In this document: piece after piece, positions 1,713 to 64,000 of the stretch
Layout of the letters: each line of letters opens with the position of its first letter
Position numbering within the stretch: the stretch's first letter is position 1
From: Acidobacteriota bacterium
GTDB lineage: Bacteria > Acidobacteriota > UBA6911 > RPQK01 > JAJDTT01
Length of the DNA stretch: 64,000 nt
Direction: 5' to 3'
Assembly: GCA_965263035.1 (NCBI GenBank)
Contig: OZ253580.1
Coordinates: forward strand, 2,848,001 to 2,912,000
Translations under genes and position numbers: made by a program
Notes under the pieces: generated by a model
What the model was told of the DNA's origin: nothing
What the model saw: only the letters and a program-made list of their open reading frames with translations
The model's database searches: none

Positions 1713-1763
1713 CCCGAACCTCCCTTTCTGCTCTCGTCCACCCTCTGCCCCGGAGCCATCCGG

Positions 1764-1859
1764 CGGAGGCACATGGGAATCGAACCCACCGGCCCCGACT
1801 CTCGCCGCGGCCCGACTGATTTTGAAGACCAGGCCCGTCACCAGACGAGAAGTGCCTCC
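1764..1859 (-). tRNA. selC: tRNA-Sec (anticodon UCA)
   Basis: 8-bp acceptor stem GGAGGCAC/GTGCCTCC, 6-bp D stem with 4-nt loop, anticodon loop CTTCAAA, long variable arm, GGTTCGATTCC T arm, G discriminator. Confidence 0.93.
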
Positions 1860-56760: not shown

Positions 56761-56854
56761 CCGATTGTCCGGACGCCGCGCGGCGTCCCAGCGGGGCGGG
56801 CGGCGGCCCGTTCGAGCTGGCGTGACTGGGTCGGTCGAGGGCTGCGGACTCCTA

Positions 56855-58073
56855 GTACCTACTAACACTTAAAGTTTCTGGTACAGGCTCTTCAGCTTGA
56901 TCCGTGCATCCTCCGTCTTGAATTGCCAGTTGATCTCGGTTTTCCGTTGATTCCGATCGCCGACCCAAGCCTCGATCTCGCGTTGCATCTGGGCCAAGCT
57001 TGGAATGCGGCGGTCGAGGCATTGTCCGCACAGCGTGCTCAGTTCGATTTCCGCAATGTTGAGCCAGCTCCCGTGCTTCGGCGTGTAATGGATTTCGAGT
57101 CGTTCCGCCAGTTGGCGAGCGTGTCGGGGCTCGTAGGTCGCGTACAGCGATTCGATTCCGTGCGTGTTCAGGTTGTCCATGACCAGGACCACCCGCTCGG
57201 CCTCCGGATATCGCCGCTCCAGCATGCCCTCAATCCAGCGGGCCCAATCCTGGCGCGTACGCCGCTCGCCCGCCTCCACATGGCTGCGGCCGGTCAGCGG
57301 CTCCACCTCCAGGAAGATCTGCGCGACCCCGTTGCGCACGTACTCGTGCTCGATCCGCTCCGGCTGGCCCGGCTCCACGGGCAGCGGCTCCCGCACTTCG
57401 CCGATCAACTGCTTGTGGGTCTCATCCATGCAGACCACCGGCCGACGGGGATGGTAGGCACGGGCATAGACTTCCAAAACGTCCTCCATGCAGGCTACGA
57501 ATGCGGCGCTGCCCCGCGGCGGGATCCGCCAATACTTCTTCCGATGAGGCTGTAGTTGGTTTTTTTTAGCGTCCGCTGCACCGTCATCACCGACACCCGT
57601 TCGACCCAGCCCAGTTCCACTGCTTTCTCCGCCAGCAGGCGCAGGGTCCAGCGCTTCCGCCCCGGCGGGGCCTGGGAACAGGCCAAGGCGACCAAGCGAG
57701 CCTCGAACACGCCGTCGAAGATGACTTCCCGCGGCGGCCGCACCCGCCGCTTGCGCTCCAAGGCGAACTCCAGACCCTGCTCCACAAACCGCCGTTTCAA
57801 GCGCTCGACCGTGCGGACTGAGACGCCCAGCGCCTCGGCCACCCGGGCCACGGTCCATCCCGGCCCCTCCGACCCGCGGTCGCACAACAATAGAGCCCGT
57901 GCGTACAGGAACCGCTTGCCGGTGGTCTTGGTCGCGGCCCGGGTCAATGCCTTCAATTCCGAGCGCTCTTCCACAGTGAGCGTGACACGATAGCGTGGTG
58001 CCATGAGAACCCCTCCTTCCGAGTTCTCCAGCCTCCTACTATAGTATACGACCAATTACATGTTATGGGGTAC
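56855..58073 (-). mobile_element. IS630 family insertion sequence, about 1219 bp
   Basis: inverted ends (TA)GTACCTACTAACA and (TA)GTACCCCATAACA, duplicated TA at 56853-56854 and 58074-58075, both in CTAG context. Confidence 0.9.
56869..58004 (-). CDS. IS630 transposase, two ORFs joined by a probable -1 frameshift at an A8 run (57560-57567)
   Basis: orfA HTH with GRKRWTLRLLA; orfB VCMDET, VMDNLNTH, YTPKHGSWLNIAE. Confidence 0.9.
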
Positions 58074-58984
58074 TAGGCCCGCTCCCCACGGTTCGGCAAG
58101 ACCGCGAGGGCGGAATAGATAGCCAGCCGGTACGCCCCGTCTTCGCGACCGGCGATGCGGATGCCGCCGACGCTGAATCCGCCCCCGTTCTTGGTCACCT
58201 CCACGTCGGCAACCATGTTGAGGCTGACGCGTGCACGCACGAAGAACCTCGAGCCGTCCGGATCGTTCAGCCGCTCCATCGGGATGATGCCCCAATAGGG
58301 AACGTCGGGCACGGAACCTTCTTCGTTGACCGCCTGGAGTATGAAGGCCCAGATCGTGGGATCGTACTCCTCCTGCTGCAACACGGCCTCTTCCTCGCGG
58401 GTTATTTTTTTTAGATCTTCCGGCGTTCCCGCCGCCGGAATGAGCTTGATGCGCCGCTTCACGGGATTGCCGTGCCGGTCGCCGTCCGGATAGTTGGACC
58501 AGAGGGCCCGCCCCAACGTCGACATCAATTCCTCGTACAGCGTCAGCGTGGTCGATGTCCACACCTCGGAGGTCTCCGCGTACCCGCTCGGAATCACGTG
58601 GCCTGCCTTGGTGGCCTTACCGCCGCCCGCTCCATAGCGAACCTGAGACGGGTCGCATTCGCCGTCCATGATCTCAATCACGAAGTCGAGATCAGCGCCC
58701 CATAATTCTCTCAGCATGCGTTCGAGCGGCGGAAAGTCGCCGAGCAACGCGCTCAGGCGGTGTCCGAATCTGAGTTCCATATTAGGGCCCTGAAGTAGTG
58801 TGTGGAGGATCTTGACGGCGAGCTCAAAGCTCTCGCCCACGAGCCGTGCCGCAAGCGGCGGATGGTCGGTGCGCTCGGCCGATACGCGGGTCGCCCAACT
58901 CATGCAGTAGTACTCATAAAACGTGGTCCGTGCCCAGATCCACGGACGGAACTTCAAAATCGGTCTTGCGGTGCAGCGTGTCAT
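58073..58984 (-). CDS. hypothetical protein with HEPN-like N-terminal region
   Basis: ESFELAVK..FGHRLSALL..QVRY resembles the E..K/H.L..L/RY HEPN pattern. Confidence 0.55.
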   Translation of the reverse strand: MTRCTARPILKFRPWIWARTTFYEYYCMSWATRVSAERTDHPPLAARLVGESFELAVKILHTLLQGPNMELRFGHRLSALLGDFPPLERMLRELWGADLDFVIEIMDGECDPSQVRYGAGGGKATKAGHVIPSGYAETSEVWTSTTLTLYEELMSTLGRALWSNYPDGDRHGNPVKRRIKLIPAAGTPEDLKKITREEEAVLQQEEYDPTIWAFILQAVNEEGSVPDVPYWGIIPMERLNDPDGSRFFVRARVSLNMVADVEVTKNGGGFSVGGIRIAGREDGAYRLAIYSALAVLPNRGERA

Positions 58985-59412
58985 GTTTCTAATCTCTCTG
59001 GTTGTGCCGCCGGAATGCGGAAACGTGCATGAAATGGCGAACTAGACCACCGGCTCATCTCCGAGCGTACCCACGATGGCATCGCCACAGTCAGGAAACG
59101 CGGATGAACACCATGCTTGCGATGCCCCCTTCTCGATTCCGCGGTCAAGTTTGGCACAGGCCGCCACGTTCCGGACTCCCCAAGTTTTCAGACCATAAAA
59201 AAGGGAATTATATCCCAAAGTCACAATTCGGCAGGGTAATCGGACGCGAACGGTTGTTAGTGTCTAAATTGAATTCGCCCCCTGAAAGTTTTCAGCTTTC
59301 AACTGTGTGGGGATGGCACGATAGAAGAACCAGAGGCCCAGCCCAAATGGGACACAGATTGGAAGTGTGCGGGGTGTACGAAGTCGAGTAATCCCTTTCC
59401 CCTAGGAAATGA

Positions 59413-59805
59413 CTAACCGACGGGGATGCGATCCGGCAGCTTGACTTTTGTGGATTGGCGGGCTAATGCCTTCTGGCAATCCTTTCTGGCGACTTTATCT
59501 TCTGGCCATCCAATGACGTGGGAATGGTCAGGCGGGTCATCGTCGTCCTCCACAGTAAGTCCAGTCTCATGAACTGCACTAACAGTCAACCTACCCCATC
59601 CATACAGAAATTCCGTATTTCGACGTCTTCTGACAACCGTGATACCGGCCTCCAAGATCTCGGGATCAGTTTTATTCCCAATTCCGGAGACAGAGAGCCT
59701 GAGACGTTTGTCCGGTGCGAATAGACTTGGACGCGGACGGATCCCAGTAGATGGTAAGTGATTGCTCTGCGTTGCGAACCGGGCGATTTCGGAATGCGGA
59801 CTCAT
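59413..59805 (-). CDS. hypothetical protein, candidate ART/RES-like toxin
   Basis: IARF..F.P..LSVS..PDHSHVIGWP; TGATG overlap with upstream gene. Confidence 0.6.
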   Translation of the reverse strand: MSPHSEIARFATQSNHLPSTGIRPRPSLFAPDKRLRLSVSGIGNKTDPEILEAGITVVRRRRNTEFLYGWGRLTVSAVHETGLTVEDDDDPPDHSHVIGWPEDKVARKDCQKALARQSTKVKLPDRIPVG

Positions 59806-60425
59806 CAGGACGATTCCACGACAGGGGCGTCCAACATCTTTCTAATCGCATCCGAAGCGGAATCGGGGATTGTGCCCTCCCACAGTTCTCTGTTTGTATC
59901 CCTGTCATCTGAAATCCAATACGAAACTCCGATCTCACCAGAGGTTAGAATAATGATGGTCAGCATCACATCATCGTGAGGAACCCACTCGAACTCGATG
60001 TCTCCAAATGGACTTGCCTCAAGGAAGAGATCCTCAGAAATGGCTTTGTCAGAAAGTTGGTCCAAAAAGGACCGTGCGATCTCTAGCGTTTCGGAAGAGA
60101 CTGGGTCTGCATCTTCACCGTCCCAGTTTCTTTCACGGCAATCGTGTTCTAACCGTTCAATCTCCAAAAGCAGCTCTCCTCGCCGATCTGGCGGCTCCGA
60201 TGGCAGAATCGGGAGGAGCCTTTGATCCTCCGTGAAGCCCTGTCGCACATTTTCATTGCCCGAAGGGGACGCCACTTCCCCTCCAGTGGTGCAGATTGGC
60301 TCCGCACTTGAAATCTGGAGCACAAAAACACAAGTGACTGCGGTAGCTTTCAGTAACAGTATGGGAGCGCTTTGTTTGGACCCGGTAGAGGGGTCATTGG
60401 AGTAATTTGCCTCTGGATTAGTCAT
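59805..60425 (-). CDS. acidic hypothetical protein, candidate antitoxin
   Basis: NWDGEDADPVS..A..FL..SPFGDIEFEW; ATGA overlap with upstream gene. Confidence 0.65.
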   Translation of the reverse strand: MTNPEANYSNDPSTGSKQSAPILLLKATAVTCVFVLQISSAEPICTTGGEVASPSGNENVRQGFTEDQRLLPILPSEPPDRRGELLLEIERLEHDCRERNWDGEDADPVSSETLEIARSFLDQLSDKAISEDLFLEASPFGDIEFEWVPHDDVMLTIIILTSGEIGVSYWISDDRDTNRELWEGTIPDSASDAIRKMLDAPVVESS

Positions 60426-60790
60426 TGTACCTTGTCCCCGAGTGTTCCCACGTTGGTTGCGTGGACATCTTCGACATTCTGAATCTTAACTTGTAGCCAC
60501 GAGATGAGAGCTTTCGCCACGCCTACGCTGAGGACAACCTGAACCTCAGCTTCTCGGACAATACCCTTCCTCACGGTCCTCGATAGCTCGCCCCCAAGTC
60601 TACCATCCGGCGTGATCTCATGGACTAGCCGAGTCGGTATAGGAGAACGCTCAGAGTAGAACGTCATTCCAATGTTGCCGGCTGGGGTTGTCCCTCCCCA
60701 TGCTCCATCCGCGTGAATCACTCGGAACCAGTTGGACTTGATGAAATGCAGGTCCACTTTGTCTCGTCTGACTGGTGTCTTTCGGGCCAT
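60422..60790 (-). CDS. hypothetical protein, DUF3467-like
   Basis: FRVIHADGAWGG.TP.G.I.M.FYSER..VREAEV.V.LS..AKAL..WL; GAGGAGG RBS. Confidence 0.65.
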   Translation of the reverse strand: MARKTPVRRDKVDLHFIKSNWFRVIHADGAWGGTTPAGNIGMTFYSERSPIPTRLVHEITPDGRLGGELSRTVRKGIVREAEVQVVLSVGVAKALISWLQVKIQNVEDVHATNVGTLGDKVQ

Positions 60791-60883
60791 ATGTTCCTCC
60801 TCATCTCACCAATTATTAACCCGCACCCATCGGGTCTGAGTACATGGTGTAGTTAATCCGCCGAATACGGAACCAGTCGCCAA

Positions 60884-61057
60884 TTAGTCGTCCTTGAACT
60901 TGAAAGGCCGAAAGAACGCCTTACGCGCCTGGTCCAGCGACAATCCCGGCATACCAACCTCTTCCCTCAACTCCTCGCGTGAAGGCTGATAATCACGCTT
61001 CGGGAGGCGCATGGTCACGGGTTTCTGGATGGAGTGCTTTTGCTTGGGTTTGGACAT
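60884..61057 (-). CDS. small hypothetical protein (YQPS..ELREE motif)
   Basis: 57 aa, upstream TATAAT and AGGGA RBS. Confidence 0.55.
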   Translation of the reverse strand: MSKPKQKHSIQKPVTMRLPKRDYQPSREELREEVGMPGLSLDQARKAFFRPFKFKDD

Positions 61058-61628
61058 TGGTCTGTGTCCCTTCACGCTTCTATTATACGTCGGGAAGGGT
61101 CTCTGCGAACAGTGGAGCGGACGTGCTGAACGGCCCAGCACCGTGCATTTCTTCGGTTCCACCTCCGCGCCGCCATTTGCGTCCCGCTACTCGCACCCCC
61201 ACTTTTCAGCGTGATGAGTTTTTTGGGTACTGGATTCTGTAACATCCCTTGACCCCGTTGTCAATCTGAGCCACAATCCCACCGCCATCATTCGCAGAGA
61301 ACCCTGTGTCGGGTCCTCCGCTGAATAGAACAGTCCATATATCCAGAGGCAGGGTAGCTCCCAGTCTCTATGGACGAACAGGCGGGCATTCCTACAGTTT
61401 CTCTGTGTGATGATGGCAGACCCGACTCCTTTAGCGGAGCCGGGATTGCTTGGGGACGTGTGCTGACGTTCGTCCTCTACAATTGGCGAGACCGCCGAGT
61501 GCGGTATCACTCGACGGCCTCTGAGCCAACTTGCCCTGTGCCAAGGGTAAGTCAGCCTGACGGCGATTCTGCGTCACCAGGCACAGTCCTACCACCTTGG
61601 CCCAGGGCCTCCAACTCAGGAGGTATCC

Positions 61629-62174
61629 ATGCCCATAGCTGGTAACAAGACTAAAACCATCATCACCAAAGTTGCCGGCGTCACCCAATCCAACCCAGAC
61701 GGCACCGAACGCCAGGACATCATCAAAGAACTGAAGATGGGAGAGAAAATCCTCTTGGTCCGTGACTACGAAAACGAGCACGATTTGTACGCGACTCAGG
61801 TTCAGACAGGGTCCGGGCAAGTCATCGGGTGGGTGCCTCGGCAAAGGACTCCCGAGGTAGGAGCATGGCTGGACCAAGGGCAGCTTGCCATTGCCGGAGT
61901 GGCCAGCCGGGGATCAGCTCCCGGGAAGAAGACCGTGGGGGTCAACATTGAAATCATGCTGGTCGGAGAGGCCGAGCGGCAAGTGGTAGAGACGGAGCTC
62001 AGGAATCATGAACGCTGGAAGAGACAGGAACTCAGGAGGCTGTCGGAACCGAAACCGGATCCGGTCCCTACATTTCAAGTGACGGAGGACAACGGGTTTC
62101 CGAAGAGCGTCATTCTTCTCTGTATCGGCCTCTTCCTTTTCATGGCGTGCGGCTTCGCTGTGTGTGGCGGGTGA
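61629..62174 (+). CDS. HIRAN domain protein with C-terminal TM helix
   Basis: TKVAGVT..RQ..I..L..G..L.RDYENEHD..A..V..IGWVPR; AGGAGG RBS. Confidence 0.8.
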   Translation: MPIAGNKTKTIITKVAGVTQSNPDGTERQDIIKELKMGEKILLVRDYENEHDLYATQVQTGSGQVIGWVPRQRTPEVGAWLDQGQLAIAGVASRGSAPGKKTVGVNIEIMLVGEAERQVVETELRNHERWKRQELRRLSEPKPDPVPTFQVTEDNGFPKSVILLCIGLFLFMACGFAVCGG

Positions 62175-62415
62175 ACTTGAATTAGGGCACTACCACACGG
62201 CACCGACCCTGTCCCATTTCCCCTCCTGCCGAGTATAATTCTGAGTGACGTGTCCTTCTTGATTCCGTGTCAGCACCCAAGGTGTATACTTTGCCCATAA
62301 GTGTTAGAGAGAGCCTCAAAAAGGTCTTGGTGGAGCGATGTGTGCAGCTTTCCGGGCATCCGAGCTCACCTGTATTCAAATTAACAAACCCCTAAATTGT
62401 AGGAGGGTGCTCATC

Positions 62416-62781
62416 ATGAAAAGTCGTGGACAGATCAGTGTTTTCAAATCCCATATACCTGGGGAAATCAAGGTCAAGTTAACTCGTCCGGTTTCTGAGT
62501 TGCGCCACATTCTCAGGAATGTAGGACAGGAGATGGGGGTCACGGAAACATTCACCTACAAACCACAGGCGACAATTGTCGTGCGTGTCCGCAAAGTAGG
62601 CACTCGGAAGTGGATCATGGGATTTGAGTGTTTCGATATGGGCTGGGTAAATTTTTTGGAGCTGGAGAGCGGCATCGAGTACGAAGTGCAGATCACGCGG
62701 AAGAATGAGGCTGGCGAGAGCGAGCCACGACTTGAACGGGTTCGGCTTGAAGACGGTGACAGTAGTGGTTTTGTCATGTGA
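62416..62781 (+). CDS. hypothetical protein with fibronectin type III-like C-terminal motif
   Basis: LESGIEYEVQITRKNEAGESEP; AGGAGG RBS. Confidence 0.6.
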   Translation: MKSRGQISVFKSHIPGEIKVKLTRPVSELRHILRNVGQEMGVTETFTYKPQATIVVRVRKVGTRKWIMGFECFDMGWVNFLELESGIEYEVQITRKNEAGESEPRLERVRLEDGDSSGFVM

Positions 62782-62836
62782 ACACCACCGGGAGTCTGGC
62801 GACTAGGGTACTACCTACACTCAGGAAGTCACGACG

Positions 62837-63064
62837 ATGAAGTCTCCATCTGGATGGGACCGGCAATTCCGATTCCTAGATTTGTTCCGGGATAAAGAAG
62901 GCCACCCGTCGTTGGGTAGGGTCATCGCAGCAATCCCGATGGCACTGCTCATCATAATGGTACTTGTGAGGATGATCGATCAATTTCAGGAACTCATGGT
63001 GGGCGCGGTGATTCTTTCAGTTCTCTCCATCATCGTCATCACTTTTCTACGTAGACACGAATAA
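62837..63064 (+). CDS. small membrane protein with two predicted TM helices
   Basis: two hydrophobic segments, AGGA RBS. Confidence 0.6.
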   Translation: MKSPSGWDRQFRFLDLFRDKEGHPSLGRVIAAIPMALLIIMVLVRMIDQFQELMVGAVILSVLSIIVITFLRRHE

Positions 63065-63169
63065 CAACCTCGATTCAAATTAGGACACTACCGCCACAAG
63101 CGGAACCTTGACAGGGAGATAGAAGGGGATTAAGGCACATCCGTTATTGGCAACTACCGTTTGATTCTG

Positions 63170-63403
63170 TCAATCAGCGGAATTGGATAATACTTGGACT
63201 TCGAGTTCATGAACAGAGCGGCCAGCTTGGCACCTGGGTCGGTGGCCTCGACTCGGGGCCGTCGCAGAGCGGCCAGTATTCTTCCCTTGATCCATCCAAA
63301 ACGCATAGCTTCCTCCTTTGGAGAGCAACAGACACATCTCCCCTAGAAAATGGTTGACCTTCAGAAAAAGAGGAATTAGAATGGCAGGGTTCTTGGTTGC
63401 CAC
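63170..63403 (-). CDS. small hypothetical protein
   Basis: 77 aa ORF below a TTGACA-N18-TAGACT promoter-like sequence (63492-63463); no recognisable motif. Confidence 0.3.
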   Translation of the reverse strand: MATKNPAILIPLFLKVNHFLGEMCLLLSKGGSYAFWMDQGKNTGRSATAPSRGHRPRCQAGRSVHELEVQVLSNSAD

Positions 63404-63583
63404 TCTAATTCACGGCCTCGCTGTTTCAGCAGCGGGGCCTCTCTTTTTCGATTACAAAAAACAGTCTATATAGGCGGGCTGTCTTTTGTCAACGGGATTT
63501 ATCACTCCTAATTAACAAACATTCCAGATGGGCTCAGGAATGACGGTTACAGGCAGAGTAGACAACTCCCCTGGTTCTGACCC

Positions 63584-64000
63584 CTATACGGTAGGTCTCG
63601 CCCCACTATCAAGGCCGTTGTCAGCGATCAGTTCCCGGTATTTCAAACGCTTGCCGTGCATCCCCACGGCAACGCATCCCATCTGGTCTTCCGTGTCCGC
63701 TTCGCGGATGTTGTGACGGCCGGTGAACTCATTGACATACCGGTGCAGATGCTTGGGACTGATTTTATGAAATGTACCAACATGCCCACGCTTGAGCATG
63801 GACCAGAAGGACTCGACTCCATTGGTGTGAGCCTTGCCTCGAACGTACTCACCAACCGAGTGCTTCACAGTCTCGTGATTGGGCAGAGCATGGTAGGTCA
63901 GAGCGTCATCGGTGTAAATCTTCGCTCCATCCTCAACATGTTCCATGATGAAGCGGCTCATGGTCTCGCTCTTGGTGTTTTCAACGACTCTGGCGGAAAC
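63584..64000 (-). mobile_element. IS1595 family transposase, C-terminal part (5' end outside window)
   Basis: IYTDD..Y..L..H.TV.HS..EYV..HTNGVESFWSMLKRG..G.FH..S.KHL.RY..EF. Confidence 0.92.

Follow-up and report, generated by a model that had tools for sequence, protein, structure and literature searches.

What is the 12-base motif that closes three unrelated, co-oriented small genes near one end of the 64,000-nucleotide stretch of DNA analysed here (the window)? The motif, TAGGRYACTACC, occupies three sites on the + strand (62183, 62804 and 63081), lying 8, 22 and 16 nt 3' of three stop codons, and the original prediction took it for the novel recombination site of a gene-capture system. 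We find that the region is a transposon leftover and not a new gene-capture system. Very probably, the motif is the tip of an IS1-family terminal repeat, and the window holds a decayed, transposase-less element followed by two further units that each have a right end. The features on which this reading rests are as follows.

59203..59228, + strand: IS1595-type element, left terminal inverted repeat (25/26 bases; partner at window-equivalent 65160-65185)
59256..59276, - strand: left-end relic of an IS1-type transposon (inverted motif, 15/21; 17/20 with one deleted base)
59413..60790, - strand: three cargo genes (130, 206 and 122 aa), with homologues in the G004 IS1-family transposon
60884..61057, - strand: 57-aa ORF, at the position of the IS1 transposase in the G004 element
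61279..61440, + strand: conserved structured leader RNA preceding the HIRAN gene, belonging to the cargo and not to the motif
61629..62174, + strand: HIRAN-domain protein carrying a membrane helix at its C-terminus; final cargo gene in the G004-type transposon
62174..62194, + strand: IS1-type right end, copy 1 (repeat identity 16/21)
62183-62194, + strand: copy 1 of the 12-mer, TAGGGCACTACC, 8 nt past the stop of ORF 61629-62174
62416..62781, + strand: 121-aa orphan ORF, "FN3-like" only below threshold
62795..62815, + strand: probable diverged IS1-type right end, copy 2 (tip 10/12, whole repeat 12/21)
62804-62815, + strand: copy 2 of the 12-mer, TAGGGTACTACC, 22 nt past the stop of ORF 62416-62781
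62837..63064, + strand: 75-aa two-helix membrane protein, the ORF before copy 3
63072..63092, + strand: IS1-type right end, copy 3 (canonical, 21/21)
63081-63092, + strand: copy 3 of the 12-mer, TAGGACACTACC, 16 nt past the stop of ORF 62837-63064
63147..63158, + strand: weak fourth copy, TTGGCAACTACC (tip 9/12, repeat 12/21, score -3.5; chance level)
63584..64000, - strand: IS1595-family transposase (C-terminal 138 aa in the window; full ORF of 330 aa reaching window-equivalent 64576)

The coordinates and spacing of the three copies are exactly those originally predicted, and the chance level of the motif is zero, with no match in any of 100 shuffles of the window. A scan of the whole 6.2-Mb genome yields only four matches, the three window copies and one at 370978 on the - strand. 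As had also been correctly noted, the copies are direct, non-palindromic repeats. They have no attC-like fold, and none is accompanied by a hairpin or T-run, terminator-like sites being located elsewhere. Copy 3 attains the maximum weight-matrix score of 35.8, and copy 1, with 19.9, is the fifth best among 12.4 million genome positions; its GGGC variant is also present in two other genomes. Copies 1 and 3 are secure transposon ends. Copy 2 is probably a true end (p about 0.01), as it shows two mismatches to the canonical tip and only 0.012 such sites are expected over the 886 nt from copy 1 to copy 3. It is set in a 55-nt intergenic gap, 21 nt upstream of the next start codon, and its inner part is not conserved (12/21; score -3.5). 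The weight matrix was trained on ends found by the canonical 18-mer and is therefore biased against variants. The weaker copy proposed at 63147-63158 does exist but is not above chance: it has three mismatches to the canonical tip, equally good sites are expected 0.2 times per 886 nt of one strand, and its 12/21 identity to the full repeat is reached at many positions of the region. Two other candidates were discarded: a right-end-like site at 62373-62393 (14/21), about one such site being expected in the region by a binomial estimate, and a tRNA-derived att site, as CACTACC forms the end of none of the genome's tRNAs and the supposed T-stem is unpaired.

Comparison with other genomes identifies the motif as the tip of a terminal inverted repeat of about 18-21 bp with the consensus GATTCAAATTAGGACACTACC, which is cut after ...CACTACC. 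The 15-mer AWTTAGGRYACTACC is present in 15 of the 136 other genomes of the class, at 18 sites against 5 for a reversed-pattern control, and 13 of these sites read exactly AATTAGGACACTACC; sequence similarity ends sharply after ...CACTACC and extends inward to GATTCAAATT. Inverted pairs of the repeat elsewhere enclose IS1-family transposases, cargo genes or nothing, and perfect 8-bp target duplications surround 22 of them, six at the level of the class (G009, 3.35 kb; G004, 4.43 kb; G029, 5.36 kb; G040, 4.73 kb; G024, 3.0 kb; and a 34-bp mini-element in G015) and 16 in other phyla. The 18-mer TCAAATTAGGACACTACC occurs at more than 125 loci across many phyla, and the 77 non-duplicate loci examined as the other-phyla set contain the latter 16 pairs (42-2956 bp, duplications 8/8). 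A transposase homologue lies inside seven of these 16 pairs and is absent from the other nine; one was detected in 22 of the 77 loci. The transposase enclosed in G009 is Pfam DDE_Tnp_IS1 (PF03400; 51 bits against a cut-off of 24.1), and the best NCBIfam family of the lineage transposases is IS1, with 83 and 76 bits, below the equivalog cut-off of 100. The repeat is kept at both ends in 25 elements, and its 18-base tip is nearly invariant although the enclosed transposases share no more than 35-56% identity with those of G004 and G009. The earlier view of the motif as a recombination or insertion site is right in that it is the recombinase site of a mobile element, but the enzyme is an IS1-family DDE transposase and not that of IS1595. 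Nor is the site novel: the motif proved to belong to a known IS family as its terminal repeat, the very outcome that the original prediction had named as speaking against it.

Several traits of this lineage recur in the window. Cargo is packed up to the element ends, which accounts for stop codons so near the motif; six ORFs found in other elements use as their stop codon a TAG within the terminal repeat itself. Small membrane proteins are a common cargo, and transposase-less cassettes with perfect duplications are represented by L055 (1253 bp), L071 (1281 bp) and L105 (861 bp). Same-direction ends recur in G004, L099, L109 and the window; among the 77 other-phyla loci such extra ends (two mismatches at most) are rare, being confined to two (L099 and L109), and a three-end stack is therefore unusual.

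A genome of the same genus (G004) contains a complete 4.4-kb IS1-type copy with a perfect target duplication, which carries homologues of the 130-, 206- and 122-aa genes of the window in the same order (protein identity 42.5%, 40.1% and 57.4%), the RNA leader and a HIRAN gene. The product of the latter is 48.9% identical to its window counterpart, and 13 nt separate its stop from the right end of the element. The earlier proposal that the small genes are mobile cargo was right. The left-end relic at 59256-59276 aligns with the duplication-proven left end of the G004 element; a second, inner left-end relic also aligns, and the window and G004 share two left ends in tandem. Paralogues of the three cargo genes lie at genome positions 371231-372550, adjoining the fourth genomic motif copy. 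Searches for a Pfam or NCBIfam family found none for the 130-, 206- and 122-aa genes, and PADLOC returned one marginal match for the 206-aa protein. The 57-aa ORF has another affinity: window positions 60893-61036 are 75.7% identical to genome positions 973010-973153, which belong to a sister IS1595 element, and its product matches the small ORF of that element over 46 aa (65%, tblastn). The presence of an ORF akin to the IS1595 sister in the middle of the IS1-type relic fits no simple single-insertion history.

No target duplication was found when the left-end relic was paired with end 1, 2 or 3 (left flank GAACGGTT; right flanks ACACGGCA, TACACTCA and GCCACAAG). The genome lacks an IS1-family transposase, the best tblastn match having an E-value of 0.27 and the PF03400 profile search of the genome giving no match, with a positive E. 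coli control; the IS1-type ends would thus be inert here unless the enzyme arrives in trans. The IS1-type ends at genome positions 370978, 1782943, 1802556 and 2922845 have no partner within 7 kb.

The HIRAN assignment is upheld by Pfam (33.3 bits against a cut-off of 24.7), and PADLOC gives only weak HIRAN-domain matches to a candidate system. In homologues of the cargo the motif is not a part of the gene itself: two HIRAN homologues were found in the 136 other genomes of the class, one of them located at the end of a complete transposon, the other truncated and without the motif. The structured RNA upstream of the HIRAN gene is previously unrecorded. It is 80.7% identical at the DNA level to its G004 counterpart, as against about 70% for the coding parts, its covariance model finds 15 copies in 8 of the 137 genomes, and 40 of its 51 base pairs show covariation; an Rfam search of 58500-64000 gave nothing credible, leaving the leader without a match. 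The "FN3-like" label of the orphan ORF corresponds to no more than a sub-threshold match (17.6 bits against a threshold of 39). A near-length search against 5.8 billion proteins recovered only the ORF itself, and metagenome contigs yielded relatives of neither this protein nor the HIRAN protein. Distant matches to the orphan ORF occur in G004 (38-40% over about 70 aa), and no motif is found near such matches in G004, G007 or others. The membrane protein has no credible relative in the 137 genomes, the one match, with an E-value of 0.005, being doubtful.

The IS1-type relic is in turn wholly contained in a 6-kb element bounded by IS1595-type repeats, from 59203 to window-equivalent 65185. It had been noted that some IS1595 elements carry passenger genes, and the array does lie between the repeats at 59203-59228 and 65160-65185, the matching pair that also encloses the IS1595 transposase (Pfam DDE_Tnp_IS1595, 90.1 bits; NCBIfam IS1595, 178.6 bits, cut-off 75). 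The compact sister element, which spans genome positions 972968-974594, has the same repeats and a perfect 8-bp target duplication, TTTCCAAT, whereas the flanks of the window element, ATAAAAAA and TTTGAAAA, agree at only 5/8 and form no target duplication. The statement that the IS1595 transposase is the only recombinase nearby is true inside the window, but an Xer-like tyrosine recombinase gene is situated about 1.4 kb beyond its end.

The read comparison proposed for finding breakpoints at the motif located one at end 3. A contig of run X9, about 97% identical to the window, spans 62058-63092; its homology breaks off exactly at 63092, where copy 3 has its tip, and past this point it continues for 171 unlike bases. 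Given this span, ends 1 and 2 are internal to it. It also has 469 additional bases between 62348 and 62349. The X9 evidence is a single contig with a depth of about 3, and the comparison relies on the covered parts of X9 and X12; runs X2 and X6 carry identical sequence and are not independent.

The most probable reading of the locus is as follows. Elements of this lineage transpose through a DDE enzyme bound at both inverted ends, and each insertion duplicates 8 bp of the target; many pack cargo genes right up to their ends, and many have decayed to cassettes without a transposase, to miniature elements or to solo ends. The window element starts with the left-end relic at 59256 and continues through the three cargo genes, the leader RNA and the HIRAN gene to right end 1, which corresponds to the complete 4.4-kb transposon of the same genus with the 57-aa ORF in place of the IS1 transposase. 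Downstream of it there would be two more units, each closed by a right end, namely the orphan ORF with end 2 and the membrane protein with end 3. The canonical, outermost end 3 is very probably the boundary that was used last.

How the two further units came to lie there admits a tentative alternative, in which the HIRAN gene, the orphan ORF and the membrane protein were each once a transposase-less, two-ended mobile insertion cassette of the IS1-type system. Each cassette could have inserted beside the previous right end, giving the order right end, 8 nt, left end, and with decay of the inner left ends the stack could then have moved as a single unit using its outermost end. It is conceivable, if we would not favor it, that such a junction was formed here, as exactly this order is seen in L099, where a 32-bp mini-element adjoins a full element (flanks 6/8), and again in L109, and in L068 a left-end tip lies 1 nt past a right end. 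The existence of transposase-less cassettes of one or a few genes with perfect duplications (L055, L071, L105), the tandem left ends common to G004 and the window, and the three-end block that forms one unit bounded by end 3 in X9 are likewise consistent with stacking, as are left-end-like sequences 10 nt past end 1 (11/21) and 8 nt past end 2 (10/21). However, these relics are weak, equally good ones occurring at 3% and 10-11% of random positions, and they were sought after the idea was formed. By a strict test, an abutting left-end tip is found at 1 of 101 ends against 0.28 expected; the putative left end of the third unit would partly coincide with the ribosome-binding site and the start codon from which the membrane protein is read; and the orphan ORF and the membrane protein are found in no other element. 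For the capture of genes by stacked single-gene cassettes, as originally envisaged, no evidence of cassette-by-cassette capture was found, and what survives is a possible stack origin. The broader notion that the lineage builds multi-gene cargo arrays in an integron-like but DDE-driven manner, by inserting single genes beside an existing right end, strikes us as rather unlikely. Were it so, the cassettes may share the 8-bp flank of the right end, their inner left ends may later decay, and the stack may keep several right ends while moving whole from the outermost one.

It is improbable that only copies 1 and 3 are real ends, belonging for example to nested or abutting elements, with copy 2 a chance resemblance and no three-unit array. 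By its 12/21 identity and its weight-matrix score copy 2 equals background, and a natural GGGT variant with the canonical prefix occurs in 0 of 137 genomes; yet a site within two mismatches of the 12-base tip is too rarely expected on that strand of that interval (0.012 times), and copy 2 shares the orientation and the similar stop-codon distance of its neighbors as well as an intergenic setting. A new gene-capture system, with the motif as the recombination site of the IS1595 transposase or of the nearby tyrosine recombinase, is very improbable and already largely refuted. In its favor, the array is enclosed by IS1595-type repeats and adjoins an intact IS1595 transposase, the Xer-like tyrosine recombinase and a tRNA-Leu lie about 1.4-2.9 kb past the window end, and IS1595 and IS1 are reportedly related families. 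Yet the IS1595 repeats differ from the motif in sequence, no copy of it is present in the sister IS1595 element, the inverted motif pairs with 8-bp duplications around IS1-family transposases bespeak transposition and not site-specific recombination, the tyrosine recombinase scores 60.7 bits against an integron integrase cut-off of 265, and the motif is neither palindromic nor able to form an attC-like fold. Hardly credible, finally, is a transcription or translation signal common to the three genes, be it a terminator, promoter element or RNA-processing site: the motif does directly follow stop codons, and copy 2 does precede a start codon by 21 nt, but hairpins and T-runs are missing from all copies, and the identical sequence bounds duplication-flanked elements in many phyla irrespective of the genes inside.

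Under the preferred reading, that of a decayed IS1-type element with two further right-end units, the result is mainly one of clean-up, as an apparent new gene-capture site turns out to be a transposon end of a known kind. The region is aptly annotated as a nested IS1-type relic in an IS1595-type element. With its near-invariance at more than 125 loci despite the divergence of the transposases, the 18-mer TCAAATTAGGACACTACC makes a handy annotation marker for solo ends, miniature elements and cargo cassettes that are missed by gene callers. As the cargo of the lineage typically consists of small membrane or orphan proteins, these elements are a source of mobile "dark" genes. The recurring same-direction ends may also show how such elements grow; if the integron-like building of arrays were true, the ends would be modular cassette joints of a system spread over many phyla.

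Among known systems, the IS1 family is characterized by repeats of about 23 bp and target duplications of 8-9 bp, and in ISfinder it includes a single-ORF / ISMhu11-like subgroup with passengers; among the papers listed by a literature search, none contained the name "ISMhu11". The present lineage resembles this family in its short terminal inverted repeats starting with GGT, its 8-bp duplications and the DDE_Tnp_IS1 domain of complete copies, and also in having cargo within the ends and in occurring as cassettes that lack a transposase, as miniature elements and as solo ends, classes that are defined in PMC3129680 and PMC7986276. The lineage differs in that its transposases fall under the NCBIfam IS1 cut-off and its 18-base tip has hardly changed between elements whose enzymes are 35-56% identical to those of G004 and G009, and the window copy differs further in the loss of the transposase, the lack of a target duplication and the presence of two or three right ends that all point the same way. 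The enclosing element is like a transporter IS of the IS1595 family: its repeats are of the IS1595 type and 26 bp long, its transposase is intact, and it contains about 4.5 kb that its 1.63-kb sister does not have. Unlike such elements it is single-copy and without a target duplication (5/8), and what it carries as "passengers" is for the most part the remains of another transposon. Tn1721, which contains Tn1722, belongs to the Tn3 family; it has an extra internal end and a resolvase, and its ends are 38 bp long. Like the window, it repeats an end in one orientation, so that one enzyme could in principle move nested units of different length, but the window genome is without the enzyme and shows no sign of inner-end use. 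Integron cassettes present the closest outward likeness, with unrelated, co-oriented small genes each followed by a conserved site (attC). The window, by contrast, has neither the imperfect palindrome nor an integron integrase (60.7 bits against 265), and elsewhere its motif stands in inverted pairs with 8-bp duplications and a DDE transposase inside.

On the strength of comparative sequence analysis, the 12-bp motif is identified as the terminal inverted repeat of a lineage of IS1-family transposons, because it occurs in inverted pairs that are flanked by 8-bp duplications and enclose transposases, and because similarity between its sites ends at a sharp border. A search of the 136 other genomes of the class with AWTTAGGRYACTACC recovered 18 sites, spread over 15 genomes, where a reversed-pattern control gave 5; 13 of the 18 have exact AATTAGGACACTACC. 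Across the sites the likeness extends inward to GATTCAAATT and stops abruptly after ...CACTACC, the signature of a mobile element that lies on the 5' side of the motif and ends there. In G009, a member of the class, an inverted motif pair 3.35 kb apart with identical 8-bp flanks (CGGCGGCG) encloses a 261-aa protein with a Pfam IS1 transposase domain (51 bits, cut-off 24.1), along with other ORFs. Perfect 8-bp duplications likewise flank inverted pairs in G004, a genome of the same genus (4.43 kb, CGTTCGCT), and in the class members G029 (5.36 kb), G040 (4.73 kb) and G024 (3.0 kb, with a variant end), as well as a 34-bp mini-element in G015 (locus L007) that consists of the two tips alone.

A scan with TCAAATTAGGACACTACC of one genome per species found at least 125 loci, and the phyla among the matches listed include Acidobacteriota, Verrucomicrobiota, Planctomycetota, Proteobacteria, Binatia, Bacteroidota and others. 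The conserved core of the repeat spans about 18 bases. From the matches listed we took 77 non-duplicate loci with flanks; 22 of these have a transposase homologue, and there are 16 inverted pairs with 8/8 duplications (42-2956 bp), seven with a transposase homologue inside and nine with none. The 18-base end is near-invariant over these loci, at least 125 in many phyla (L039-L118 among them), and the IS1-family transposases inside such elements share about 35-56% identity with the G004 and G009 enzymes. The smallest elements are tip pairs of 33-53 bp that retain the 8-bp duplications (L094, and L007 in G015). A small cargo protein, recognisable by its conserved stretch ...VWEGVVHVFDL.GHP.ATRAYAWSS..., recurs at L055, L071, L105 and L106, its carriers being several transposase-less cassettes of the lineage from different phyla.

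In the window, the three motif positions of the original prediction are exact, all on the + strand, and the stop codons of ORFs 61629-62174, 62416-62781 and 62837-63064 precede them by 8, 22 and 16 nt, respectively. The HIRAN label of the first ORF corresponds to a genuine Pfam match; the "FN3-like" label of the second falls away, its match being below threshold. No motif match arose in 100 shuffles of the window, and the 6.2-Mb genome has one further copy, at 370978 (-), with 20 bases in common with copy 3 (ATTCAAATTAGGACACTACC).

Motif copies of the window, scored with a weight matrix trained on 50 validated ends and biased towards the canonical form, and compared with the 21-base repeat and its 12-base tip
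62183, + strand: copy 1; matrix score 19.9 (rank 5 of 12.4 million positions); repeat 16/21; tip 11/12
62804, + strand: copy 2; matrix score -3.5; repeat 12/21; tip 10/12
63081, + strand: copy 3; matrix score 35.8 (the maximum); repeat 21/21; tip 12/12
63147-63158: weak fourth copy; matrix score -3.5; repeat 12/21; tip 9/12

On these matrix scores, repeat identities and tip expectations we accept copies 1 and 3 as IS1-type ends and regard copy 2 as a probable one, 0.012 sites of its quality being expected between copies 1 and 3 from the 12-base tip alone. The proposed fourth copy was dropped, as 0.2 sites of its quality are expected by chance on the same basis.

The complete G004 element comprises, in order, two tandem left ends, homologues of the 130-, 206- and 122-aa genes of the window (42.5%, 40.1% and 57.4% identity), followed by an IS1 transposase and a 167-aa gene, then a conserved non-coding stretch, and last a HIRAN-membrane gene (48.9% identity) that stops 13 nt short of the right end. 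The window keeps this order, with a left-end relic, the three genes, then the leader, the HIRAN gene and end 1 (copy 1). Its left-end relic (59256-59276, 15/21) can be aligned with the proven left end of G004, a relic of the second left end likewise aligns, and end 1 closes the G004-like part. Beyond it, end 2 follows an orphan ORF, and the perfect end 3 follows a two-helix membrane protein. The G004-type transposase and 167-aa gene are missing from the window, their position being taken by a 57-aa ORF related to a small ORF that an IS1595 element carries at another genomic site. A profile search, positive for its control in E. coli, found no IS1-family transposase encoded in the whole genome, and four other IS1-type ends examined there have no partner within 7 kb and are thus solo. 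An older paralogous three-gene module (genome 370978-372830, genes 371231-372550) ends in the fourth genomic motif copy. The module, which has no known family, is thus found as G004 transposon cargo and twice in this genome (59413-60790; 371231-372550), adjoining IS1-type and IS1595-type ends at each occurrence; its 206-aa protein gives a marginal PADLOC match (PDC-M32A, E 2.9e-4).

The IS1-type relic is enclosed by 26-bp IS1595-type repeats (59203-59228 and window-equivalent 65160-65185), between which lies an intact 330-aa IS1595 transposase. A sister element of 1.63 kb (genome 972968-974594) has the same repeats and a perfect duplication, TTTCCAAT, with its small ORF and transposase just 340-380 bp apart; relative to it, the window element contains three extra blocks. 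The flanks of the window IS1595-type element agree at only 5/8 positions, so it may not have arisen by a single insertion.

A 160-nt stretch ahead of the HIRAN gene (61279-61440, +) looks like a new cis-regulatory RNA leader. This structured RNA has no Rfam match. With a covariance model trained on three copies, 15 full-length copies were detected among the 137 genomes of the class, in 8 of them; these include genome 47775-47932 (-), 2097625-2097784 (+) and loci L174-L187. In the alignment, which was fitted to the covariance model and so favours the structure, 88.9% of cells pair, against 41-44% with partners slid, and 40 of 51 base pairs change on both sides, as in none of 500 shuffles. Its conserved loops are GUCGGG, CYGAAUAYAACA, GGGUAGCUCCC and GAAYAGGC, and it always precedes small membrane-associated proteins (HIRAN-membrane, zinc-ribbon-membrane and others). 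Also in the neighbourhood, an Xer-like tyrosine recombinase (window-equivalent 65447-66424, -; genome 2913447-2914424) lies beside tRNA-Leu(taa) (window-equivalent 66932-67018, +; genome 2914932-2915018). A 1.47-kb stretch containing this tRNA occurs a second time, with 99.3% identity, at genome 2100968-2102439; this may mark an island boundary. A 1.23-kb insertion sequence (56844-58076), whose first ORF has HTH_32 and HTH_23 domains, has 15 other genomic copies of 92-99% identity, and ARAGORN predicts a tRNA-Sec (anticodon tca) at 1762-1859 (-).

The proximity of stop codons to the motif is a by-product rather than a function, because cargo in this lineage is packed up to the very ends of the elements; six ORFs in other elements terminate at the TAG within the repeat itself. 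Nor is the motif part of the cargo genes, since the sole other HIRAN homologue besides that of G004, a truncated one in G005 of the same class, lacks a motif copy within 18 kb when up to 4 mismatches in 15 are allowed.

The inverted pairs, 8-bp duplications and IS1 transposase linkage are at odds with site-specific recombination, be it by the IS1595 transposase or the Xer-like recombinase. Family scoring ruled out the latter enzyme, which lies outside the window, as an integron integrase. A terminator or promoter role is unsupported, and the motif does not fit as an attachment site derived from a tRNA. The sole unusual feature of the array is its stack of same-direction ends. Among the matches listed, extra same-direction ends with at most 2 mismatches are seen at 2 of the 77 loci (L099 and L109), and the tandem left ends of G004 are another such case. 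At L099 a full element is followed, 8 nt past its right end, by a 32-bp mini-element, with the flanking 8 bp nearly repeated, and L109 has the same junction of right end, 8 nt and left end, which suggests insertion directly beside an existing end. In view of these junctions and of weak left-end-like sequences past ends 1 and 2, serial cassette insertion is a reasonable candidate, though at well below even odds, for the origin of the three-end stack. The left-end-like sequences, sought post hoc, lie 10 nt past end 1 (11/21, equalled at about 3% of random positions) and 8 nt past end 2 (10/21, about 10%). Alternatively, the stack could have arisen by nested insertions and subsequent deletions, or copy 2, with its low matrix score but high tip match, could resemble an end by chance.

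Among public sequencing runs, contigs of X2 and X6 are identical to the window region and add no information. A single X9 contig, about 97% identical and of depth about 3, aligns with 62058-63092 and has 469 additional bases between 62348 and 62349. The match ends exactly at 63092, the final base of end 3, and gives way to 171 unlike bases. Judged by alignment, another organism thus has the three-end block, there with other DNA on its right and with its border at the tip of the outermost end. The match of a single low-depth X12 contig starts at 61271, where homology to G004 begins. A comparison of strains for breakpoints at the motif is what the original prediction had called for, and this single low-depth X9 contig points to transposition from end 3.

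A new capture system, as originally proposed, is unsupported, the motif being the end of a known kind of transposon. The array of the window is the relic of one such element, which lacks a transposase, has two or three right ends and lies inside an IS1595-type element. Members of the IS1-family lineage range from full, cargo-bearing elements through transposase-less cassettes and miniature elements to solo ends, classes that are defined in passages of PMC3129680 and PMC7986276; the window transposon itself is new and unnamed, and belongs to a kind already known.
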